50,182 bases of DNA. It comes from Elusimicrobiota bacterium (GTDB lineage: Bacteria; Elusimicrobiota; Elusimicrobia; F11). Under the pieces are notes generated by a model that was not told the DNA's origin, did not search any database, and saw nothing but the letters and a program-made list of their open reading frames with translations. This document shows positions 5,817 through 47,400 of this stretch, one piece after another. Where the stretch lies: assembly GCA_043732015.1 (NCBI GenBank), contig JAYTIE010000265.1:1-50182 (forward strand), read 5' to 3'. The position numbers and the translations under genes are program-made. Position 1 is the stretch's first letter; every line of letters begins with the position of its first letter.

Positions 5817-6404
5817 ATGAACTCATTTCTATTGGCGTTTATTCCGCTCCTCGTCGCCATCGACCCCTTCGGGACGCTCCCGCTGTTCCTGGGATTGACC
5901 GAAGGATACACCCGGCAGGAGAAAAATCAGCTCGCCCTTCAGGCGGTGATCACCGCGTTCATCGTGGGCGTTGCGTTTGCCGCCGCGGGACACTACGTGT
6001 TCGCGCTGCTGGGAATCAACGGGTCTGATTTCCGGATCGCGGGCGGACTGCTGCTGCTGATTTTTTCGATCCGCGAGGTTTTCGGCCACACGGAGAAGAA
6101 TCCGCAGGGCACAACGCGTGACGCGTTCATGGGAATTGTCCCGCTCGGGATTCCCCTTATCGCCGGACCGGCCACCATCACGACGCTTCTGATCCTTCAC
6201 GATTCGCGGCCGTTTCCGATTATCGTTCTGGCCCTCGCCGCCAATCTCGCCATCTCGTACCTGATTTTTTTCTATTCAGACCAGATCCTGAAAACCGTTG
6301 GAGAAGCCACTTCTCGCGCGACGGCGAAGATCGTCGCCATCTTCCTCGCGGCCATCGGAATCATGATGATCCGAAAAGGCCTCGAGGCAATTCTCCACCG
6401 CTAG
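5817..6404 (+). CDS. marC: MarC family integral membrane protein
   Basis: IDPFGTLPLF, FRIAGGLLL, VPLGIPLIAGPATIT. Confidence 0.92.
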   Translation: MNSFLLAFIPLLVAIDPFGTLPLFLGLTEGYTRQEKNQLALQAVITAFIVGVAFAAAGHYVFALLGINGSDFRIAGGLLLLIFSIREVFGHTEKNPQGTTRDAFMGIVPLGIPLIAGPATITTLLILHDSRPFPIIVLALAANLAISYLIFFYSDQILKTVGEATSRATAKIVAIFLAAIGIMMIRKGLEAILHR

Positions 6405-9400
6405 ACCTGCCGCTGTAGATTCATCATCCCACGCTGGCCGCCATCCAGGAAGCGGAGTGGTCGCCCTCTCAAGGAACGGTTGGCGACCTCATGCACTGCC
6501 GTCCCGACGACCGCCACCGCAATTCCCAGCAAGGGGCTGATTGAAAAACCAATGGCAGGCGCTACGGCCACGACGAAACCCAAAAATAAAACTCGCCGTT
6601 TGGCGCCGCTGTCCAGCGATCCAAACGGTGTCTCGACGGCCGCCTCCTCTTCACTCACCAGGACCGTGCGATGTCCAATGAACCAGATGGCGAGGCCCAT
6701 GCCGGCCGCGACGATTCCTGGAACGACGACGCCACTGAAAATCCACGCCATCAGGGAAGCGTTCACCAGTCCAAGAACGGCAAACAGCGCGCCTTCCGTG
6801 TACGGAGCCAGACGGGCCAGGAATTCCCGCGAATAGCCTGTAAAGGCGGAGAGCCCGCGGACCATGGAAACCATCACCGCGAAGGAGGTGGCGCTGGTCT
6901 GCTCATTTCTTAGCAGTTCGAGCCGGGCCCGAACTTCGGGAACGATGGGCTGGCCAAACACTTCTTTCGGAGTGGATCGCTGGGCCGCACCCTTGAAGCT
7001 GAAAACCTTTGTTACCGGGAAGCGCGCTTCGACGTCGACCGATTCGCCGGTCGGGAGCGATGAAAGATATCTCTCGTACCAGACGATGGCGCCGGCGCGA
7101 CCCTTTTCCCGTCCGAATTCTTCCGTCAAGGCCTGCTCAACGCCTCGCAGCAGCGACGGGATGTCGTTCGCGAAAGGCTGCCACTCCCGTTCGGGAGACC
7201 CGGCTTTGAGCGACAGATGAAACAGCGAATCAAGAAGCGTGCTTGCCGACGCCATCTTCGTAGAACGAAGATAGGCCAGCGCGGCGCGGCCGTCCGTTGT
7301 GTCGTAAAGAATATCGGTGCGAAGATCGAGCGTGTCGACGATCTGGCCGCTCATGGGAACGGTTTCACTTCTGGCCAACCTTGGCAGTCCCGCCCTGAGG
7401 CGAATGAAAGTAACGGTCAGCATCGCCGCGACGGCTTTCGCAACGTCCTTCCGGCGCATCTCATCTGGAGGGCGTCCGGAAAGTTTTCCGGCCTCCCCTT
7501 CCCACAAAAGGGAAAACTTCATCCGGTCGTTCTGCCTATCAAGATCAGAGGGTGAGGCGTCGGGCCTGAAACGGGCGTACTCGGGAAGCCACTGACGGGC
7601 AAAAGTCTCAGACTTCAACGGCCCCACGAGCGGGAAGTAATCGATGTTTCGCAAACCGGCCATCGCCACTCTCGGGCTGATGTCTTCGGTTTCAGCCCCG
7701 ATCGGTTTGGCGGCGCGGCTCATCATCGCGTAGAGCTCCGTCGTTTCCGCTCTCATGCCCGGTTTTCCGACGACCATCGCGATCCGCGGATATTCCTGCT
7801 CGGACAGGCCCGGCAGAACAAACGTCACTTCGCAGACCAGCGCCTCCGCCAGTTCCTCGGAAACACGTATCTCGATGGCGGACGCCTCCGCCGGCTGAAA
7901 TTGCGGTGTCGCGATCCTGTGCGCGACCGTCGCCAGCGCGGCGCCGCCTTCGCGGTTAAGAAAATAGTCTTTGATCCGCGCCATCGCATGGGCTTTCAGC
8001 GGATGCGCTTTGTCTCCGACCCATTTCAGGGAATTCCCCAGCCTGTCAATCTGATCGCTGGCGACGGGCGGGGCGTCAATGGGAGTGATTTCTTCCAGGT
8101 GGCTGTCATAGTCCTTGAACTTCGAAAGCCGCGCCATCACCTTGTCGAATACTTCCCTCGACAGGCGCTTGTTCGCATACGCCTTTCTCAGGGCGCCAAC
8201 AACGCGCTCGTATCCGATTTCGAATTTGTAGCCGGTGAGACACATTCGCGTCAGCTCATTCACTTCCCGGTTGTCCCGGTGGCCCGAGCCAATGGAGAAT
8301 TCCCAATACTTCACGATCCCGTTCACCGTTTTGAAAAGCGGAACTTCGTCTCCGCGACCGTCCATGACCTTGTGCGCGGAGAGCGCTTTCGGCTCGAAAC
8401 TCCCATCCGTCCAGTGCTTCTTCTCCGACACCATCACCACGGACGCCTTGGGATCGTCGACGGCGCGATTCGGATTGGACGCCTGCCCCGGTTGATAGGC
8501 AACCGCCCCCTGGAAGAATTCTCCACGAAAGCTTTCGAACTCCCGTTCCGACAGCGTCGGAGCGCTTCCGAGCAACGCTCGGGACTCCCCCAGATCGGCT
8601 TCCTTGATAGTTGCCTCGAACTCCACGGGAAACTCCTGCAGCTGCTCACCGAAGTTCAGCGCAAAAATATAGTGGGAATCGATCTCATCCTCTTCAAGCG
8701 GCAGCCGAATGATCATCGTGTTGTCGTCTCGCTGAAAGACGACGGGCTCCTGAAGACGAATTCCCTGCGGTTTGGGCGACCAGTTTTCAAAAATTTTAAG
8801 GGCATCAATATATTGCCGGGCGGATCCATCCATCATCGGCAACTCCGGAGCGTCAACATAAATATCAGCGTCCCAGATATCCAGCGAGCGCATGGCGAAG
8901 AGCAGATGCTCCACCATGGAGATACTGACGTCCTTCTTCGCCGCACCCGTGTGACGCCGGCGCCCCCGCAATATGTTGCTGAGAACGATGGGGATCTCAC
9001 GGGACTCCCACGACCCGGAGATATCCGTTCGGTAAGCCCTGATCCCGCTCCCGGGAGGTTTGGGAACAATCCTGATCTGAACCGGTTTGCCCGTGTGAAG
9101 ACCGACGCCCATGATCGGTACTCCGAAGATCCGGTAGTAGGCCTGCTTCATGAATTTGACGAGCGCCCGCCACGACATGACGAAGGGCCGGGACATGGCG
9201 GAGAAGGCGAGCTGCTTGCCGGAAAATTCGACCGAGATCGTCTCGATTCGGTCCAGGAAGGAAATAGTGACCTCCACTGTTTTTCCCTTCGCCGTCGAAA
9301 CGACGCGCGTACCGGACAACGAAGCCTGGAAATATCCGAGCTGATCTCGTCCCCACTGGATGGTTCTCTTATCACGGTTAAGGGTTCCGCGGGCGATTGC

Positions 9401-11020
9401 GGCCGCCGCGATTCGCGCGTGATTGCCGTTCGACAGCGGGCGGGCGGTCAGCGTCTGTCCCCGCGCCTCCATCGCCGCGTCGAAAGGAGATAACGGGCGG
9501 GCGAGCTCCCGCAACGGCCCGGACGCATCCCAAGCGCGCGCATCTCCAACGAGCGGGGTGAAAGCGACGTAGCCGAATCCCAGGCGGCGCGCGGTCGTTG
9601 AAATGGACGACGAGTGAAAGCCCCCCGCGACGACCACGAGGCAGTGGGCCCCACCCGCGCTGGCAAGCGCCAGATTTTCGCCGAAACTCTCGTTGCGCTG
9701 AGACGCGCACCGATAGAAATCCTTGGCCGGGGACATGGCGCGCTCGAGCGCGGCGCATCGTCGCAGGGCCTGCCGCACGCCCGCGTCCGTCGACACCGGC
9801 GAGAGCGGCGCCGTGCAGAGCTCCGCCCACTCGGCGGATGACGCGGACAATGAGGCCAGCTTCGACAGCAGATAGACGCGGTGAGACAGGCGGGCGATGT
9901 CCTTCTCTTCGGGCGTGACCGCCAGCCGGAGCGGAAGGCCGTCCTGGATCTCCGACACTGCCGCGATTAATTTCTCCGGGTCAATGGATCTCGTTAAAAG
10001 CGTGCGCTCAAGATGCGTGGAGAGATTCGGAAAATCATTGATCGAAATTCCGTTACGACTGGTGACCGCCATGAGGGTGGAGACGAACTCCCCTGTTCCC
10101 ACCTGGCCTTTCTGGAAGCGAAAGGCCGCATCGAAGAGAACCGACGCGTCAGCGTCAGAGATGCGGCCGCGGAGGCGGCCGAGAAGAGTCTGAAGTTCCG
10201 ACCCTACCTCAGAAACCTGATACAGCGTTTCCAGAGAATTGGCCCGCAGGAGCGCGGACATCACATAGCTGAGCGCCTGCCCCCGGTGGCGAAGCAGGGC
10301 AAGAACGGAGGTGAGCGGGAGGTCGCCCGCCTGATAGCGCGCAATGGCGAGATCGACCACGTACATCTCGGCATTGTAGTGGCGCTTCTTCAGGTCTGTC
10401 ACGGAATCGCTCATCGACTCCACCACACGCTGGAAGGCGGGCTGGAGATTCAGCGCATTTCGTAGGGCCTCGACATTTCCGCGATAGACCGACTCATCTT
10501 CGAGCGGAAGAACCGACGGCACGATCGATGGGTGGGTAACGATGAAATGTGCGGCGCCGGAAATTTTCCCTTCCGAGAAAAGCTGGTCGGCGGCCATGTC
10601 CCGGATTTCAGCGTCCGGAGCGGAACCGAAAAGCTGCGGGTCAAGCGCGCGGGTCTGTCCTTCAAGAACCAGCGCATCGGCGCCATGCGACTCAAACATA
10701 AGCGCGAGCGCGGACTCCGCGCTTTTCTGCGCGGTCGGATTTCCGTGGACGTCCTGAATCTGGATGATCCACTTTTTTCCTTCCGCCGGCGGAACGAGAC
10801 CGCTGATCGTCCCGAACCGGGAGAGAAGCGGCGCAAGGTTGGCCGGATCAACCGCCGGAATATTTCTGGGAGCGAGCGTCCTGGCGGCGAAAGGAAGCGG
10901 CGAAACAGGGCGTGCGGGAGGAACCGCGAGGGCGTCTCCGACAACAGCCTCGGAGAGCACGGCAACGGTCACGAGAATGGCGATGAATTTCCGGACCCGG
11001 CAGACTTGCGCTAAGTTCAA
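6401..11020 (-). CDS. 1539-aa modular protein: signal peptide, ChaN/TIKI-like N-terminal domain, LpxC-like deacetylase domain (~8250-9120), unknown region, C-terminal TM helices
   Basis: IQDVHG, LVLEG, RNES, AGGFH; then GVGLHTG, VEHLL, ELPMMDGSA, HKVMD, GSGH; hydrophobic C-terminus; TTG start with AGGGG SD. Confidence 0.8.
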   Translation of the reverse strand: MNLAQVCRVRKFIAILVTVAVLSEAVVGDALAVPPARPVSPLPFAARTLAPRNIPAVDPANLAPLLSRFGTISGLVPPAEGKKWIIQIQDVHGNPTAQKSAESALALMFESHGADALVLEGQTRALDPQLFGSAPDAEIRDMAADQLFSEGKISGAAHFIVTHPSIVPSVLPLEDESVYRGNVEALRNALNLQPAFQRVVESMSDSVTDLKKRHYNAEMYVVDLAIARYQAGDLPLTSVLALLRHRGQALSYVMSALLRANSLETLYQVSEVGSELQTLLGRLRGRISDADASVLFDAAFRFQKGQVGTGEFVSTLMAVTSRNGISINDFPNLSTHLERTLLTRSIDPEKLIAAVSEIQDGLPLRLAVTPEEKDIARLSHRVYLLSKLASLSASSAEWAELCTAPLSPVSTDAGVRQALRRCAALERAMSPAKDFYRCASQRNESFGENLALASAGGAHCLVVVAGGFHSSSISTTARRLGFGYVAFTPLVGDARAWDASGPLRELARPLSPFDAAMEARGQTLTARPLSNGNHARIAAAAIARGTLNRDKRTIQWGRDQLGYFQASLSGTRVVSTAKGKTVEVTISFLDRIETISVEFSGKQLAFSAMSRPFVMSWRALVKFMKQAYYRIFGVPIMGVGLHTGKPVQIRIVPKPPGSGIRAYRTDISGSWESREIPIVLSNILRGRRRHTGAAKKDVSISMVEHLLFAMRSLDIWDADIYVDAPELPMMDGSARQYIDALKIFENWSPKPQGIRLQEPVVFQRDDNTMIIRLPLEEDEIDSHYIFALNFGEQLQEFPVEFEATIKEADLGESRALLGSAPTLSEREFESFRGEFFQGAVAYQPGQASNPNRAVDDPKASVVMVSEKKHWTDGSFEPKALSAHKVMDGRGDEVPLFKTVNGIVKYWEFSIGSGHRDNREVNELTRMCLTGYKFEIGYERVVGALRKAYANKRLSREVFDKVMARLSKFKDYDSHLEEITPIDAPPVASDQIDRLGNSLKWVGDKAHPLKAHAMARIKDYFLNREGGAALATVAHRIATPQFQPAEASAIEIRVSEELAEALVCEVTFVLPGLSEQEYPRIAMVVGKPGMRAETTELYAMMSRAAKPIGAETEDISPRVAMAGLRNIDYFPLVGPLKSETFARQWLPEYARFRPDASPSDLDRQNDRMKFSLLWEGEAGKLSGRPPDEMRRKDVAKAVAAMLTVTFIRLRAGLPRLARSETVPMSGQIVDTLDLRTDILYDTTDGRAALAYLRSTKMASASTLLDSLFHLSLKAGSPEREWQPFANDIPSLLRGVEQALTEEFGREKGRAGAIVWYERYLSSLPTGESVDVEARFPVTKVFSFKGAAQRSTPKEVFGQPIVPEVRARLELLRNEQTSATSFAVMVSMVRGLSAFTGYSREFLARLAPYTEGALFAVLGLVNASLMAWIFSGVVVPGIVAAGMGLAIWFIGHRTVLVSEEEAAVETPFGSLDSGAKRRVLFLGFVVAVAPAIGFSISPLLGIAVAVVGTAVHEVANRSLRGRPLRFLDGGQRGMMNLQRQV

Positions 11021-11080
11021 AATCGCCCCTGAAATGGACGAGATTTGGTGTCCCGGACGAGGTGATTCCGTCCAGGAGAA

Positions 11081-11113
11081 ATGATATCCCGGGATCGATT
11101 AAGGCGCCCTTAA
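11081..11113 (-). promoter_or_regulatory. TTAAGG-N5-TTAAT box plus -10 element TATCAT upstream of the LpxC-cargo gene
   Basis: Same spacing and same 78-nt distance to the start codon as the copy at 49895-49927. Confidence 0.7.
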
Positions 11114-11139
11114 TTAGGTGTAAATGAAAGGTGAAGAGT

Positions 11140-11172
11140 AAAAAAAGAAAACGCGCCGATTTGACGCGGCGT
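11140..11172 (-). terminator. Putative intrinsic terminator
   Basis: CGCCG-loop-CGGCG followed by CGTTTTCTTTTTTT right after the stop at 11174. Confidence 0.55.
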
Positions 11173-11173
11173 A

Positions 11174-13537
11174 TTACTCGGCTGGCAGGATGCGAATGAT
11201 ATCGCCCGATTCGGGCACGACATGGAAGCGAAGATGTTCAATCCGGACCTGATAATCGCCCGGGCGAACGGTCGACTCCGCGGAAATATCCGCGACGGCC
11301 TGGATGGGGCTGATGCGCTGGAATTTTCCGATCTTGAGACCCGGATCATCCACGTGAACCACCAGCGACTCGGCAAAATTTCCCTGCAACGCGCGGCCCT
11401 GCAGCACGAGCTGCGCCTTGCCGCCAGGCTTCAGGGGCGGCGTGGTACTGATGCTCCGGAACCAGTTCGTCGGCACGATCTTGAAGGCGGAAGCCGTCGT
11501 CAGAAGAACCTTCTGTTTGTTGCGGATGGTGAGACTGTAGATGCCGACCTTCGCCTTTGACGGAATCTGGACGTCGACGCTGAGGCGGCCCGCCGACAGA
11601 TAGGTGAATTTCGCGCTGGCGCCGGGCATGTCCGGCACTTCCGCCGTGAGGACATCGGCGTCGCTCCCCTGAAAACCGCTGCCCTGAACGACAAACCGCG
11701 CGACATCACCCGGGCGTTGGAATCCGTCTTCCGCCTGAACGCGAAGGACCAATCCCGTCTGCCCCACGTTCGGATTAACGATGCGGATGATGCCGTCACG
11801 GTTCCAGAGAACCTTGTTTGCCAGCATCACCCTGACACCGTAGACGCCGGTCACGGCCGGGCCAACCGAGATGGTGCCGTCGACGATGAAGGGAAGCCGC
11901 GCGCTTAGCCGTCCCAGAGAAATGGAAGGAACGCTCGGCTCAACGTGAAATTTCGCCAGCATCGCTTCGTCGAGATTCGTGAAGACGCGAAAACGGCCCG
12001 TTCGCCCGGACTCGCCCATCTCGGTGAAAACAAGATTGAGAACCTCGCCGGGCCGGATGACGGCATAGGGCGCGGCCGCCTGAAACACGACTTTCTCTCC
12101 GATGGACACGGTCGGAAACGCGAAGGCTGTCGCCGCCGACGGCGCTATGACGAGCCGTCCGTGAATCTGGTTCGGCGTCACCAGCGAAAAGTCCTTCACT
12201 TCCACATGCTCCATACCGGCCTGCACCGACAACCGCTTTTGGAACTCTTCGTTGAATCCGGAACCGTTGATGTCAAATTCGATCGTGTCGCCCGGAGCGG
12301 CGATCATCGTGGCGTAGTAGACCCGAACGATGTGAATGTCTTTTGGAATGAGCTCGGGATGAAGCGTGACTTGAGGGCGAACAGCACCGCTGGGCGCCTT
12401 CGTTTCGGCGGCGGCCGCCGCGGGAGATTCCACTGCAGGCTTATCCGGTTCAGCCACCGGCTTGGCAGCTTCAGCGGCGGCGCCCGGTGCACCGGCAACG
12501 GGAGGCGTAGTCTTCGCGATGCGCGGCGCCCGCCGGCGGCGCGCCGGTTTAACGATGGGCGCTTTCTGATCGAAGGCCGAGGACTGCGCGGCGGGATTGG
12601 GACTTGTCGCCGCCACCGGCACAGGTGCGGCGCCACCAGGAGTCGCGACCGACGGTGCGATACCGGCGGCAATCATCTGTACTGCTCGGGCAAAACGCCT
12701 GGCTGCGCTTCGGGCGGCCGGATATTTCTTGGACCTCACGCCGCGCGCGGTCTTGCCCAGCGCGTTTCGCGCGGAATACTTCGAGGTATCGGCGAGTGCC
12801 TTGGCGGCGGCCGCGGCGCCGGCGGTACCCTCGCCTGACTGGCGGAGCGCTTCCTCGAGCTCCTCCAAACGGCGTCCGGCCTCCGCGACGAGCGGCTTCA
12901 ATTCGCTCTGATCCGCGCCGCCCTTCGTGGCGGAGAGCGTCTGCCGGGACAGATCTGCGGCCACTTTCTGCAGGGCTTCGATTTTCGCCGCAATCTCCGC
13001 CGCGTTGTCCGGCGCAACGGCGGTTCTGGGAACGGCGACTTCACCGGAGATCGCGGCGGCCACGGCGTCGAGCGAACCAACGGCCTCCCCGCTGTTGCTC
13101 GCGGCCAACGCCGAGCGAATTTTCGGAATCTCGTTCCGGTTGACGGAGCGGAGGCTGAGCGCCATCTGCTTGATGTAGGCCGCTTCGGCCGGATCCACCG
13201 TCACGCCCGTTCCCAGACGCGACACGATTTCTCGCGCCTGCTGCTCGAGTCCGGCGGCGAGCTGGGCCGCGTTTTCAAATGCCGCCAGTTGCGTGGCGGG
13301 GCTTTCATGGTCCGTGTCGAGCCGGGAGCGAATGGCTTTTATCTGAACGAGAAGGTCCTCGGCGCGGCTTCGCAGACTGGCGAGGTCGGGCTCAGGAAAT
13401 GTTTCTTCTCCCGAAGCGGAGGAGACCGCGGTCCGGGGCACCGGCGCGTGAGGACGGGGATAGCAACCACGAGCGAGAAGCGAGCCAATCACCGAAGCGG
13501 TGAGAACCGCCGCGAGGACCGACAGGCGGCGCAGCAT
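11174..13537 (-). CDS. Membrane-anchored protein: N-terminal TM, helical/coiled-coil region, Pro/Ala-rich linker, tandem Ig-like (IPT/TIG-like) beta domains
   Basis: Start MLRRLSVLAAV overlaps the upstream stop (TGATG); repeated PGD/PGG...GSGF/GRAL beta-sandwich units. Confidence 0.65.
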   Translation of the reverse strand: MLRRLSVLAAVLTASVIGSLLARGCYPRPHAPVPRTAVSSASGEETFPEPDLASLRSRAEDLLVQIKAIRSRLDTDHESPATQLAAFENAAQLAAGLEQQAREIVSRLGTGVTVDPAEAAYIKQMALSLRSVNRNEIPKIRSALAASNSGEAVGSLDAVAAAISGEVAVPRTAVAPDNAAEIAAKIEALQKVAADLSRQTLSATKGGADQSELKPLVAEAGRRLEELEEALRQSGEGTAGAAAAAKALADTSKYSARNALGKTARGVRSKKYPAARSAARRFARAVQMIAAGIAPSVATPGGAAPVPVAATSPNPAAQSSAFDQKAPIVKPARRRRAPRIAKTTPPVAGAPGAAAEAAKPVAEPDKPAVESPAAAAAETKAPSGAVRPQVTLHPELIPKDIHIVRVYYATMIAAPGDTIEFDINGSGFNEEFQKRLSVQAGMEHVEVKDFSLVTPNQIHGRLVIAPSAATAFAFPTVSIGEKVVFQAAAPYAVIRPGEVLNLVFTEMGESGRTGRFRVFTNLDEAMLAKFHVEPSVPSISLGRLSARLPFIVDGTISVGPAVTGVYGVRVMLANKVLWNRDGIIRIVNPNVGQTGLVLRVQAEDGFQRPGDVARFVVQGSGFQGSDADVLTAEVPDMPGASAKFTYLSAGRLSVDVQIPSKAKVGIYSLTIRNKQKVLLTTASAFKIVPTNWFRSISTTPPLKPGGKAQLVLQGRALQGNFAESLVVHVDDPGLKIGKFQRISPIQAVADISAESTVRPGDYQVRIEHLRFHVVPESGDIIRILPAE

Positions 13538-14586
13538 CAAGCACCCTCGGGCGATTTGGCCGGGACGGCCTGAACGTGAACCTCGCCGGACTGAATGTTC
13601 GCGGTGAAATGTTCGCCGCTCAGCATGCCGCTCTCGGCCGATTTCAGATGGCCGGCCACTTCCTCGGCCAGCTTGGCCCGTTCGACGGTCAATTCCTGAA
13701 GACGCGAGTCGATCTTTCCGAACCGATCGACCAGCGCCGCCACGCCCTTGGCGGGCACGATCGCCGTGGCACGAATCTTCGAGAGCGCAGGACAGATCTG
13801 GGCGTAATCGCAATACTGGCAGACGCCGCGCTCATTGGGCGTGGCCTCGAATTTCTGGTCGCTGATGCCATGCGCGGCTTCAACGATACCGGCCTTCATC
13901 GACTCGAGCTGCCGGTCGGTGTGCGCCGGCACGGTGAGCGGCGTCAAGGAATTCAGGTGATAGAGGGTAACGGACTCCACGGGTTTTCCGAGGAGAGTCG
14001 AGCAGGCGAGCTGGTAAAGAGTCAGCTGCGGGTCGGTGCGAACGCGGGATTTATCGAAAGCCTTTCCCGTTTTGTAGTCGATGATGGCCAGCCCGCCGTT
14101 TTTCGTGTTGTCGATGCGGTCAATGAAGCCGGTGACTGGAACGCCTTCCACGCTGATCGTGAATTTCAGCTCCACCTGACGGACGGATGAAAAATCGGTC
14201 GAATGCTTCGCGTAGAAGCCGCGAAGGATGCGTTCGCCTTCCTGGAAAAACCATTTCTCCTGGGCCGGGCTCTCGTAACCTTCCCGAAGCCATCCTTCCC
14301 GGAAATGTGAAAGCAGTTCTTCCAGCGCCGGCCGCTGCGCGCGGGCCCGGTCATAGAGAAACTCGAGTCCCGCGTGCACACTCTTGCCGAAAGAAAAGAA
14401 AGAGCGCGGCTTGTCCGGGACCTTGTCCACGTAGCGAAACTTCCACTTCTGGGGACAGTCGCGGTACATCTTGACGGAGGAATGCGACAGAACGCGCCCC
14501 TTGTACCAGGGCGCCACTTCAACCGGAATGGGCTCCGGCTTCTCCGGCGGGGGCGGAGCGAATCCGTCGAAGGTCATCTGGCTCAC
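13537..14586 (-). CDS. RecB-like PD-(D/E)XK nuclease with Fe-S cysteines (Cas4/AddB-like)
   Basis: LSHSS..YRDCP, FGKSVH, GFIDRID, IIDYKTG, QLTLY, CQYCDYAQIC. Confidence 0.9.
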   Translation of the reverse strand: MSQMTFDGFAPPPPEKPEPIPVEVAPWYKGRVLSHSSVKMYRDCPQKWKFRYVDKVPDKPRSFFSFGKSVHAGLEFLYDRARAQRPALEELLSHFREGWLREGYESPAQEKWFFQEGERILRGFYAKHSTDFSSVRQVELKFTISVEGVPVTGFIDRIDNTKNGGLAIIDYKTGKAFDKSRVRTDPQLTLYQLACSTLLGKPVESVTLYHLNSLTPLTVPAHTDRQLESMKAGIVEAAHGISDQKFEATPNERGVCQYCDYAQICPALSKIRATAIVPAKGVAALVDRFGKIDSRLQELTVERAKLAEEVAGHLKSAESGMLSGEHFTANIQSGEVHVQAVPAKSPEGA

Positions 14587-44455: not shown

Positions 44456-47400
44456 TTAGGCCTGAAGCGCCGCCAGCAGCTGGGTCGCGATGTCGTTGGT
44501 CAACGTTTTCGCATTGATGATTTCGGGCATGAACTTGTTCAGGAGGTTGTAGATCTCGCCGTAAGCACCCTTACCGTTCGAGTAGCTCGCGTAGGCGAAG
44601 GTCGCCACGGCCAGCTGCGCCGGGCCGGTGACGGATTCGAAAGGAAGATTGCCGGTCACGGTGGCCTTGGCGTCAAGTCCACCCATGATGACGGTGTTGC
44701 CCGGGTTAACCTCACGGCCCGCGGAGAAGGCGGCGGTCACGTCGATCGCGGCGTCTCCGGTCTGAAGGAGGTTGAACTTCAGGTTGCGGCCGGCCACACG
44801 GGCGCGGTCGTTGGCCTGGTTGATGATGCTGGTGAGCGTGGCGATGTAGGTCGCGTTCTGGCTTTTCGTTTCCAGAACAACCTCGCCGCTCAGCGCGCCG
44901 AGTTCGGTGCCGGGGAGATGGAATTTGAACAAGAGGTCGACAAACGCCTTCTCGTCGATGGCGCCGGCGGACTTATCGTCGAAGCCTTCGATCGAGTCAA
45001 CCTTCCAGAGAATGTTGATCGGCGTCACGGCCGGCCGGAGTTTGGCCTTCAGTCTCTCGCCGACCGCCTTGGCCGCGTCGAAAAACGCGCTCACTTTCGC
45101 GCCCATCGCCGCGCCGAGAACGTCCATCCCCTTGCCGGCGAAGGTGTTCTGATCACCGGAACCGGAGTATTGGAACACGAACCCGGAGATAAACCGGTAG
45201 GCCAGGTCAAAAGGCAGGAGCATCGATCCCAGGATCCAGGCAATCGCTTCGTTGGCGATAAACGCGAGACCATGGGACCGGGTCGGGATCTGAAGAGGAG
45301 TGAAGTGGATCCGCGCATGGGTGAGCACGGCGCGAAGCAGCAACGCGCGGCCGATGGCCTCGAGACCAGAGGAGGCTTCAAGAAGTCCCACGCCGATGTA
45401 AAGGATTCCCTTTTCCTTATTGACACTCTCCAGCTTGCCGGGCGTCAGAACCACTTTGATCTCGCGCGTCGGGCTGCTCAGCCCCGCTTTGAAATCAAGA
45501 ACGGCGTTAATCGCGGACTTGCTGAATTTATCGTCAGAAAGAAGTCCCTGGAGATCGGTATTGTCTTCGATCGTGGTCGAGGTGTTCGCCACTATCTTGC
45601 CCAGATGGGCAAGATAAACGAACAGCGCACCGAGGATCGCGACGAATCCGAAGTAAGCGTTGTAGTAGTACCCGCCCAAAGCGCCGACGACGATGATTCC
45701 GAGACCGACCGCGAGAGAGGCGCCCCAATGGAAAGGTTGAGCAACCTCAACGTCGCCGACGCGGTGCAGACCGGTCTGGTCGATAACATACTTGCCGGGC
45801 TCGGTGATGTTGAAAGACGCCGTTTCCGTTTTTTCGAGGCGGTAGCCGCGGATCCGGAGGTATTCGGGAACATTCTGGTCGTTGATTTCGGCGGCGGTTA
45901 ATTCGACAAATTTCCAGCCCGCGTTGGTGACGTCTAGATTTTCGATTGTGACTTCGACACCGTGAGCAGCACTCACTTCAAGCGCGCCATCAAGTTTAAG
46001 GCCATTAATTTTAATCCCCGCACCCTGAAGGGTTAATGCGGACCGGTCAGAGATCGTTATCTGTCCCGTCACTTTCTTGGCAAGTTCGTCAATTGAAGGT
46101 GCAAAGGCGGCATCGAACGAGACGATCGCGCCCACCGGAATGCTCACACCCCGAAACGCGACAAGCTGCCCAGCAACGTTGATCGTCACTCCCTTGATGG
46201 CGCTGAGCATCAAACGGATCGCTTTGTAATACAGGGCCTCGGAGGTTTGCATCCCTTCCGCGGGCGTCCCATTGGCCGCAAGTTTGGCGGCCGCTTCAGG
46301 GGCATTTTTGGCCGGCGCGAAAACAAATTCACGGGGCTCAACCAGGGTGGTGCCGACGTCGCTCGGCGCAAAAATCAGCGCAATGTCCTGGCTGTTGTAT
46401 TCCAGCCGACCGTTTTCGCCCTTTTGAAGCTTGGACAAGGCGAGAATTTCCGGTGACTCCCCCGTATGGCTGAGAGCGGCGCGGTACTGCGGAAGCTTCA
46501 CAATGTACTGGTTGAGATTGCCGTCGAAAGGCGAGTGACCCGTTGCCGGATCAGCCACATCGCCACCGGGGAGAATGTCCTTGGCGTTCGTGTACTCGAC
46601 GTTCCGTCTGCGGATCGGGGTGCCGTCCTGTTCCTGAACTTCGACGATCAGGCCGTAGTTTTCTCCAGCCTCTCGAACGAACGTCATGAAGTTAAGGCCA
46701 ATATTTTTTTCGACTGATGCGCCGAGGCCCGCCATCACAGTCTGGCGCATGACGGAATTCGTGTCCTGTATGAAGACGACGTGTTGCCGCCCTTCGCGTT
46801 CCCACTGTTCATCGAGGTTGGAGAGCTTGATCAGGGTATGGACGTCACCGTGACCGTGCGGCGACGATGCAATCGCATAGGGGTTCGTGGCATCCAGGAC
46901 GAAATCGCCCTGGAGATTGTTGGAAGCAGGCACCTTTCCCTGCGAAAGGATATAGATGGTTCCTTTCCCATTTCCCGGAACAAGCGTGGTCGAGACATCG
47001 TAATGGTCTCCGGTTTTCTCCACGATTTCATAGCCCTGGCTCACCTTTGAATCAGAAAGAAGGTCAACCATGAGATCCCGATTGTCCGGGGAAGCCATGA
47101 TCATAACGGCCGCGGGGATGTTTTCTCCGTTGAGTTCGTTCGACTTCCGCTGAAAGGCGTCAATTGAACCGAGGAACTCGGTCATGTAGGGCCGCATCGT
47201 CGCTAGATCCATCGGCACCGCCGGCTTGATACCGTTCACCAAACCCAGACGCTCGCCCTTTCCGCCGAAAGGCATGGCGTAGACAGTTCGGTTGGCGGCC
47301 TTAAGTCCCGTGTTTTCCAGTCTCTGAAACGTGGGATCAGCAGGGCCCTTGAGTTCGACCGCGGGAACGCGCTTCAGAATCTTTCCTGCGATCGGGTTGA

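Follow-up and report, generated by a model that had tools for sequence, protein, structure and literature searches.

We have analyzed an LpxC-like domain embedded in a much larger protein that is probably exported, encoded by a 50,182-nucleotide contig (JAYTIE010000265.1) of an Elusimicrobiota bacterium. We refer to this whole stretch of DNA as the window. The protein, P0001, has 1539 amino acids and is encoded at window positions 6401-11020 on the minus strand. LpxC is the enzyme that commits the cell to making lipid A, and it is a validated antibiotic target. To our knowledge, it is a family with only one function. By its sequence, its predicted fold and its catalytic residues, the domain in P0001 is a member of the LpxC superfamily. 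Judged from the sequence, it does not qualify as an LpxC equivalog: the family cut-off, pocket residues, context and architecture all speak against this. The reading that we favor, by a modest degree, is that it is an active zinc amidase employing the LpxC mechanism on a substrate that lacks the uridine diphosphate (UDP) and 3-O-acyl handles, and that it would function outside the cytoplasm, in a protein that begins with a signal peptide and is anchored in the membrane at its C-terminal end.

The relationship with LpxC was first suggested by short motifs. The initial annotation of the window placed six of these, in the order found in LpxC, within positions 8250-9120, and all are present in the translation of the gene: GVGLHTGK (residues 638-645), VEHLL (703-707), ELPMMDGSA (726-734), HKVMD (883-887) and GSGH (911-914), with RTDI lying between the first two. 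The occurrence of this set in LpxC order is far beyond chance, and the interval agrees well with residues 634-925, i.e., nucleotides 8246-9121. A search with profile hidden Markov models (HMMs) supports the assignment. The match to the Pfam LpxC family PF03331 scores 95.2 bits (cut-off 27; E = 6.1e-27) and aligns residues 636-814 with profile positions 10-181 of 268. Since only this part of the profile is covered, the second half of the domain is divergent, as had been noted for its middle subdomain. The domain also contains an insert of ~17 residues that is common only to P0001 and its closest homolog.

Six relatives (P0005 to P0010) make up, together with P0001, an LpxC-like family of seven members, every one of which matches PF03331 (best E = 6.2e-38). 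A profile constructed from the seven was matched to the solved LpxC structure 1xxe with E = 3.4e-28, profile positions 610-887 aligning with chain residues 9-262 and so spanning both domains. The structure of residues 615-960 was predicted using AlphaFold2 (AF2), from an alignment of the seven family members with 34 canonical LpxCs, giving a mean predicted local distance difference test score (pLDDT) of 94.1 and a predicted template modeling score of 0.93. Comparison of this model with LpxC structures by Foldseek gave E values down to 5.7e-19 and target TM-scores of 0.72-0.83, the top matches being the enzymes of P. aeruginosa, A. aeolicus, E. coli and Y. enterocolitica. A fold search independent of Foldseek returned Z-scores of 30.4, 29.9 and 28.9 with a root-mean-square deviation of 2.6 Å over 260-269 residues. 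In the best of these, model residues 16-318 were superimposed on chain residues 7-282 (269 residues aligned). The next match after LpxC had Z = 4.3 and was unrelated. The LpxC fold that the motifs had led one to expect is clearly predicted.

P0001 nevertheless falls well short of the thresholds that define the LpxC enzyme itself. The LpxC equivalog model TIGR00325 gave 74.9 bits against its cut-off of 187.25, and the NCBIfam models NF009667 (75.6 bits, cut-off 465) and NF009666 (46.5 bits, cut-off 423) were likewise missed.

We have compared individual residues between E. coli K-12 LpxC (NC_000913.3), P0001 and its six relatives, and 18 canonical LpxCs. The roles of the E. coli residues were taken from a review (PMC10254716); its 'Phe162' was left unused, because residue 162 of the K-12 protein is Asn in the alignment. 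The set of nine catalytic and zinc-binding residues (H19, E78, H79, T191, H238, K239, D242, D246 and H265) is kept in all seven family members, although their overall identity is only 23-37%. The zinc ligands H79, H238 and D242 correspond to H705, H883 and D887 of P0001, while E78, H265, T191, D246 and K239 correspond to E704, H914, T822, D891 and K884. The Glu and His of the VEH motif, the HKxxD motif and the downstream His, which the initial annotation had described as retained in P0001, prove to be invariant across the family. Directly after the catalytic His stand R915 and D916, invariant residues that are specific to the family.

The residues that hold the substrate behave quite differently. 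The set that lines the UDP/phosphate pocket of LpxC (K143, D160 and K262) is not kept in P0001, the corresponding residues being T768, N789 and G911. At the K262 position six family members have Gly and one has Ala, compared with Lys or Arg in 14 of the 18 canonical sequences. D160 is replaced by Asn, Thr or His, where 13 of the 18 have Asp or Glu, and the K143 position is Thr throughout the family (Lys or Arg in only five of the 18). Likewise lost is the set that forms the hydrophobic acyl tunnel and the hexose pocket (F194, M195, I198, F212 and V217), which gives S824, E825, F828, A841 and M863 in P0001. No member of the family has Phe at the F194 position (13/18 in canonical LpxCs) or Val at the V217 position (14/18), and six of the seven carry Glu at the M195 position, a residue found there in just two canonical sequences. 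The catalytic core has been kept while the residues that hold the substrate have been replaced. This is the pattern expected of an enzyme with a changed substrate; neither an inactive domain nor another LpxC would be expected to show it.

The genome of the organism (G000) is a metagenome-assembled genome of 2.70 Mb in 291 contigs, 94.6% complete, with a depth of ~7x. A separate canonical lpxC, which the initial annotation proposed to look for, is present elsewhere in it, split over two contig ends (C257, positions 2-328, profile 1-106; C214, positions 6-449, profile 120-267), with lpxA ~1 kb downstream on C214 and lpxB on C108. The order to which the bacterium belongs comprises one family and 12 genomes; canonical LpxC (286-296 amino acids, 315-331 bits) was found in all 12, and the fused form in just three (G000, G001 and G007; 76-104 bits). 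Across the class, a search of 393 genomes with residues 615-1400 (E<=1e-15) matched nine, three of which have the fused form and six ordinary LpxC frames of ~300 amino acids.

The phylogeny was examined in a quick, unrooted IQ-TREE calculation with 32 rows and 296 columns, comprising the seven family members, E. coli LpxC, 18 of ~140 canonical HMMER hits and six canonical LpxCs of the class. The seven lie together on one side of a branch with a Shimodaira-Hasegawa-like approximate likelihood ratio of 100, apart from the 25 canonical LpxCs. The possibility that the domain arose by recent duplication of lpxC within the organism was rejected, given that in this quick, unrooted tree the fused clade stands apart from the six LpxCs of its class.

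The LpxC-like fused family is rare. All the fused homologs are singleton clusters at 90% identity. A search with the pattern [RA]HK[VI][MGL]Dx[IMR]GD, taken from a five-sequence alignment, listed 80 loci, none of which matched beyond ~residue 326 of the 786 of the query; the extent of match is that of ordinary LpxC, and none of the 80 is fused. We also observed two metagenomic proteins of the LpxC-like clade, P0010 and P0154 (392 and 414 amino acids), that are named LpxC in their source and have neither the N-module nor the C-domain described below. These may be a stand-alone form or fragments, because their contigs are ~2 kb in length.

A fragmented assembly at ~7x depth raises the question of whether a piece of lpxC has been mis-joined to an unrelated open reading frame (ORF), or whether a broken gene has been misread. 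The initial annotation had named a chimera or frameshift as an alternative, and the data contradict it. P0001 is a single frame free of stops. Logan contigs assembled from four sequencing runs, all belonging to a single study, cover the gene with no differences. In X1 and in X2, the possible source runs of the assembly, a 4665-base contig spans 6300-10095 with no differences, and contigs of X3 span 8570-11200 and 7990-8591, again with none. Both domain junctions (~9180 and ~8140) are bridged, since the contigs of X1 and X2 and those of X3 overlap them. In run X4 three of 30 bins were without cover, and nothing has been drawn from it. Furthermore, an exhaustive HMMER search with residues 341-1539 against 1.84 billion representatives found an N-module, an LpxC-like domain and a C-domain, arranged as in P0001, in five metagenomic proteins, P0005 (1575 amino acids), P0006 (1613), P0007 (1244), P0008 (1394) and P0009 (1483), and this architecture occurs in two related genomes too. 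P0010 corresponds to the LpxC-like part only, and the other matches among the best 150 are confined to either the first LpxC subdomain or the final part of the N-module. The fusion is real. A chimera is excluded for practical purposes, and we assign it a vanishingly small probability.

We now consider where the domain might be located. The N-terminus of P0001 resembles a signal peptide, and five full-length homologs have the same design, in which a basic n-region leads into a short hydrophobic core that is followed by an AxA-like site. In a hydropathy scan nothing hydrophobic was found between residue 32 and ~1405 except at residues 450-468, which correspond to a buried strand of the N-module carrying its GGFH motif. 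The scan thus contains no transmembrane segment between the N-terminal domain and the LpxC-like domain, as the initial annotation had it, and the helix observed there (model residues 3-18 of the AF2 structure) is amphipathic. The C-terminal hydrophobic cluster is similar in P0005 and P0006. P0008 has one cluster, and none reached the threshold in P0007 and P0009. Two His motifs of this cluster are common to P0001, P0005 and P0006, namely SH(R/T)xVLV, which follows the second helix, and H(E/F)xxN, which follows the last one, and from its sequence the cluster may be more than a passive anchor.

The N-module comprises an α/β core with the motifs QDVH, LEG, RN/RD and GGFH, split by a helical insert of ~280 residues. 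Its AF2 model has a pLDDT of 79.4. The folds that best span it are ChaN (2g5g, Z = 8.7) and EreC (6xcq, Z = 8.7), followed by the esterase-like Northeast Structural Genomics structures 2qgm (Z = 8.0) and 2rad (Z = 7.9) and by HopBA1 (5t09, Z = 7.3). These matches align 165-185 residues with modest Z-scores, perhaps reflecting a shared arrangement only. Foldseek gave no match to the module at E<=0.001, nor did Pfam at E<=1. Conserved His, Glu, Arg and GGxH, invariant in the alignment, are located at either end of the core; we take such motifs to be typical of the ChaN/erythromycin esterase/Tiki superfamily. The ChaN/erythromycin-esterase-like assignment, based on the model, is offered as a lead only. 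The profile of the module also gave weak matches in the PDB to centrin and calmodulin (E ~0.008-0.08, profile positions 157-259) within the helical insert (window ~9900-10400, minus strand); they may reflect helix-loop-helix repeats or compositional similarity only, and we have treated them as not significant.

C-terminal to the LpxC-like domain lies a further domain with conserved features such as an EWQPFA motif and R1278 (four homologs). It had no match in Pfam, in PDB sequence profiles or in the Atlas. The positions of all these elements are collected in Table 1.

Table 1. Features of the LpxC-like gene, its product and the adjoining upstream sequence (window coordinates)
Feature	Position	Strand	Basis or remark
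Terminator-like hairpin with T-run	11152..11168	minus	just after the 879-residue gene; consensus scan
AGGGG, Shine-Dalgarno-like element	11026-11030	minus	5 nt 5' of the P0001 TTG start
LpxC-like gene (P0001)	6401..11020	minus	1539-residue ORF, TTG start, no internal stop
Signal-peptide-like N-terminus, residues 1-32	10925..11020	minus	R8/R10/K11, core FIAILVTVAVL, A-L-A before V33
N-module, residues ~63-529	9434..10834	minus	profile match 470 bits; AF2; fold search
Linker, residues 530-629	9134..9433	minus	ends in amphipathic helix before the LpxC-like domain
LpxC-like two-domain zinc-hydrolase fold, residues ~630-932	8225..9133	minus	Pfam, profile, AF2, fold search
E704-H705 (= E78 general base, H79 zinc ligand)	8906..8911	minus	invariant in 7/7 of the family, 18 canonical LpxCs and E. 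coli
T822 (= T191), then family-specific E825 replacing the F194/M195 position	8555..8557	minus	residue alignment
H883-K884-x-x-D887-x-x-G890-D891 (= H238, K239, D242, D246)	8348..8374	minus	invariant
G911-S-G-H914-R915-D916	8273..8290	minus	H914 = H265; G911 replaces K262
C-domain, residues 933-1400	6821..8224	minus	conserved in P0005, P0006, P0008, P0009
C-terminal hydrophobic cluster, residues ~1410-1512	6485..6791	minus	3-4 predicted helices and Arg-rich tail

P0001 is not alone in carrying the N-module. A profile built from 21 copies identified 35 ORFs in the genome, always with the module near the N-terminus, that together occupy 245.6 kb (9.1% of the assembly) and reach 9013 amino acids in length; 21 of them touch a contig end. 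Two stand in tandem on contig C261, encoding 9013 (C261:3-27041) and 7755 (C261:27045-50309) amino acids, the former reaching the end of the contig. The window itself contains a weaker member (214 bits), an ORF of 1818 amino acids at 44456-49912 (minus strand) without a Pfam family. Each of the 11 remaining genomes in the family contains the module, as do genomes from two other families of the class, with at least 13 matches per genome when 13 candidates were scored in each. In the nearest Atlas clusters the commonest taxon is Candidatus Omnitrophota, which we regard as a lead only, and a word-index search found just P0001 itself and one N-module relative. Membership in this set of 35 modular paralogs changes the context in which the LpxC-like domain is to be viewed.

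A hydrophobic core is present in 28 of the 31 paralogs that have an N-terminus, judged by eye mostly to follow basic residues and to end in AxA. Many paralogs have an approximate motif (A/S)-E-(A/S/T)-N-L-W directly after AxA, which might serve as a signal for sorting or processing; in P0001 the motif is absent and VPPARP stands in its place. A Pfam scan of 10 complete paralogs found domains in seven (L122, L123, L125, L126, L127, L129 and L130) and none in three. The cargo comprises starch-synthase GT5 (PF08323) with GT1, a cyclic nucleotide (cNMP)-binding domain, a GAPDH C-domain, DUF218, HATPase_c_3, AAA_5 with LRR, and ABC1 kinase with peptidase M48.

From these data we infer catalysis, substrate and topology as follows. 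P0001 would be exported by the Sec pathway as a modular protein, in the order signal peptide, ChaN/erythromycin-esterase-like N-module, linker, LpxC-like domain, C-domain and three to four transmembrane helices, and would be anchored by the C-terminal membrane segment. The LpxC-like domain belongs to a tiny, deeply separated clade in which the catalytic apparatus is whole while residues that in canonical LpxC bind the substrate, by its UDP phosphates, its sugar and its 3-O-acyl chain, have changed. It would hydrolyze an N-acetyl group (an amide) by means of zinc-bound water activated by Glu704 and His914, with Thr822 stabilizing the oxyanion, at the extracytoplasmic side of the inner membrane. 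The substrate would be a non-nucleotide, N-acetylated amino sugar of an envelope polymer, glycan or glycolipid, either of the producer or of a partner cell; we infer this class to be the most plausible one. The fused gene would then be accessory to the ordinary lpxC of lipid A synthesis. The initial annotation had envisaged an active deacetylase with an altered substrate or acting outside the producer's cytoplasm, and this agrees with the changed residues of the UDP and acyl pockets and with signal-peptide-like N-termini throughout the family. A wider scenario, in which an LpxC-fold zinc deacetylase has been recruited outside the cytoplasm of an episymbiont, on an expanded family of exported proteins, to act on a new N-acetylated envelope substrate of producer, host or prey, is put forward as a tentative possibility.

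Several observations weigh against an extracytoplasmic enzyme with a new substrate. K239 and H265, which in canonical LpxC also contact the UDP phosphates, are both retained. The change of K143 to Thr says little, because this position is variable among canonical LpxCs, and residues around F212 and V217 are aligned with less certainty owing to the nearby insert. The AF2 model may lean to the canonical fold because 34 canonical LpxCs were included in its alignment; the sequence profile and the motifs agree with the fold that it predicts. The signal peptide and the transmembrane helices have been called by hydropathy and by eye, and the Arg-rich C-terminal tail can be reconciled with a cytoplasmic location only for an odd number of helices. 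The main counter-argument is that most of the cargo domains of the paralogs, placed behind the same N-terminus, would need cytoplasmic nucleotides or cofactors, as is the case for starch-synthase-like GT5, the GAPDH C-domain, HATPase, AAA_5, ABC1 kinase and the cNMP-binding domain. Either many of these domains have no catalytic activity outside the cell, or the family has a topology other than that suggested by the signal peptide.

These points bear on the alternatives in different ways. Could the domain be a second genuine UDP-3-O-acyl-N-acetylglucosamine deacetylase, a membrane-tethered LpxC isozyme facing the cytoplasm that feeds or regulates lipid A synthesis? All the catalytic residues and K239 are in place within a full LpxC fold, the nucleotide-dependent domains of the paralogs hint that the bodies of these proteins may see the cytoplasm, and the topology assigned by hydropathy and eye leaves room for this. 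Yet the position of K262 is Gly or Ala, F194 and V217 are lost, and a conserved Glu stands at the mouth of the acyl tunnel. The score lies far under the equivalog cut-off, the branch is long and separate, the N-termini resemble signal peptides, and canonical lpxC is present in 12 of 12 genomes of the order when the fused form occurs in only three. We consider the isozyme improbable. A non-catalytic module of LpxC fold, binding a ligand or serving as a scaffold in a protein whose function resides in its other domains, would be in keeping with the many enzyme-like domains of the paralogs that are useless without adenosine triphosphate or nicotinamide adenine dinucleotide outside the cell; pseudo-enzyme cargo may be common among them. 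This must be set against nine catalytic and metal-binding residues that are invariant in seven sequences of such low identity, a pattern to be expected if catalysis, or metal binding at the minimum, has been under selection, and we judge a wholly non-catalytic role rather unlikely.

The remaining alternative overlaps the reading that we prefer. The protein might be an effector, displayed by an episymbiont or predator and deacetylating the envelope of a host or prey cell. The Omnitrophota lead from the N-module clusters points in this direction, and the long proteins of that phylum have been discussed in terms of attachment and the processing of cell-surface polymers, in two preprints (10.1101/2023.11.21.568195; 10.64898/2026.06.07.730766). 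The share of the genome given over to the paralogs and the patchy occurrence of the fused gene in the order would also be consistent with it. Against this, the C-terminal transmembrane cluster suggests retention in the inner membrane of the producer, and no secretion-system or pilus gene was seen adjoining the gene. Action on another cell seems to us the less likely outcome by some way, roughly on a par with a non-catalytic role.

No lpxA or fabZ was found among the neighbors of the LpxC-like gene examined in the window, in keeping with the initial annotation, and no lipid A gene of any kind was seen adjoining it. Immediately upstream, at 11174-13813 on the minus strand, is an ORF of 879 amino acids that looks secreted and has no Pfam family. 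From an internal Met (MLRRLSVLAAVLTAS...ARGC) its sequence resembles that of a lipoprotein or signal sequence, followed by a low-complexity stretch rich in Ala and Pro and then by a long β-rich C-terminal part. The terminator-like hairpin between the two genes suggests that the LpxC-like gene may have its own promoter; the consensus scan in which it was detected found 16 such elements against 10.5 expected. Also in the vicinity are genes for a nuclease of the PD-(D/E)XK type, for a VanZ-TPR protein and for a PMT_2 glycosyltransferase. On the downstream side come a convergent gene for MarC and one for Dus, and further along there are housekeeping genes for FtsH, a TilS-like protein, GlmS, GlmM and an amidase.

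If the proposed function is correct, this would be the first member of the LpxC family with a function outside lipid A synthesis. Should the chemistry have been kept while pocket and location changed, the LpxC fold would be re-usable, and enzymologists would have a natural variant of its specificity. In any case it is a rare and cleanly delimited instance in which the fold of a single-function antibiotic target has been re-used in a protein that appears to be exported. Among titles in the literature on LpxC-like proteins, homologs, paralogs and domains, none described an exported LpxC-like protein of this kind.

The closest known counterpart of the domain is canonical LpxC (PF03331; 3nzk, 5vwm, 1xxe). 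The two-domain fold is shared (Z = 28.9-30.4), and the zinc ligands, catalytic residues and the GxGLHxG and ExPxxDGS motifs are kept. In contrast to the canonical enzyme (EC 3.5.1.108), which is a stand-alone cytoplasmic protein of ~300 amino acids, the domain here occupies residues ~630-932 of a 1539-residue protein with a signal-peptide-like N-terminus and a predicted transmembrane cluster, its pocket residues are changed, R915 and D916 are invariant, and the closest pair of sequences carries the 17-residue insert. It also differs in having no lipid A genes as neighbors, in forming a separate clade and in scoring under the NCBIfam equivalog cut-offs. Fusion of LpxC to another domain has a precedent in LpxC/FabZ (NF009667), the best NCBIfam match of P0001 with 75.6 bits. 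However, the cut-off of 465 is missed, P0001 contains no FabZ domain, the partners are different, and a putative export signal is present. The resemblance to ChaN, erythromycin esterase and Tiki proteins (2g5g, 6xcq, 2qgm, 2rad, 5t09) concerns the N-module alone (Z = 7.3-8.7), which differs from them in its ~280-residue helical insert and in having neither a Pfam nor a Foldseek match.

The host protein as a whole is best compared with the long proteins of Omnitrophota. As described in passages of the two preprints cited above, these have in most cases a signal peptide and/or transmembrane helices, and many contain divergent domains of metabolic enzymes, PF08323, GT1 and HATPase being among the commonest families. 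The catalog holds 916 proteins and 552 Pfam families, and the location of such enzyme domains is left open by the authors (10.1101/2023.11.21.568195; 10.64898/2026.06.07.730766). The term LpxC is absent from the main text of both. P0001 shares with these proteins the presence of divergent domains of housekeeping enzymes, LpxC-like in P0001 itself and of other kinds in its paralogs, which exceed 9000 amino acids and include domains of the PF08323, GT1 and HATPase type. Its putative signal peptide and transmembrane helices, called by hydropathy and by eye, may be a further resemblance. It differs from them in length, 1539 amino acids compared with the 10,000 at which the catalog starts, and in its shared N-module, which is not described for them in those passages. 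With 1.5 thousand residues and no internal transmembrane segment, it provides a small and tractable case in which to ask why copies of cytoplasmic enzymes occur in the signal-peptide and transmembrane proteins of Omnitrophota-like bacteria. The host protein fits the pattern of the long multi-enzyme proteins of that phylum, at one-tenth of the catalogued size.

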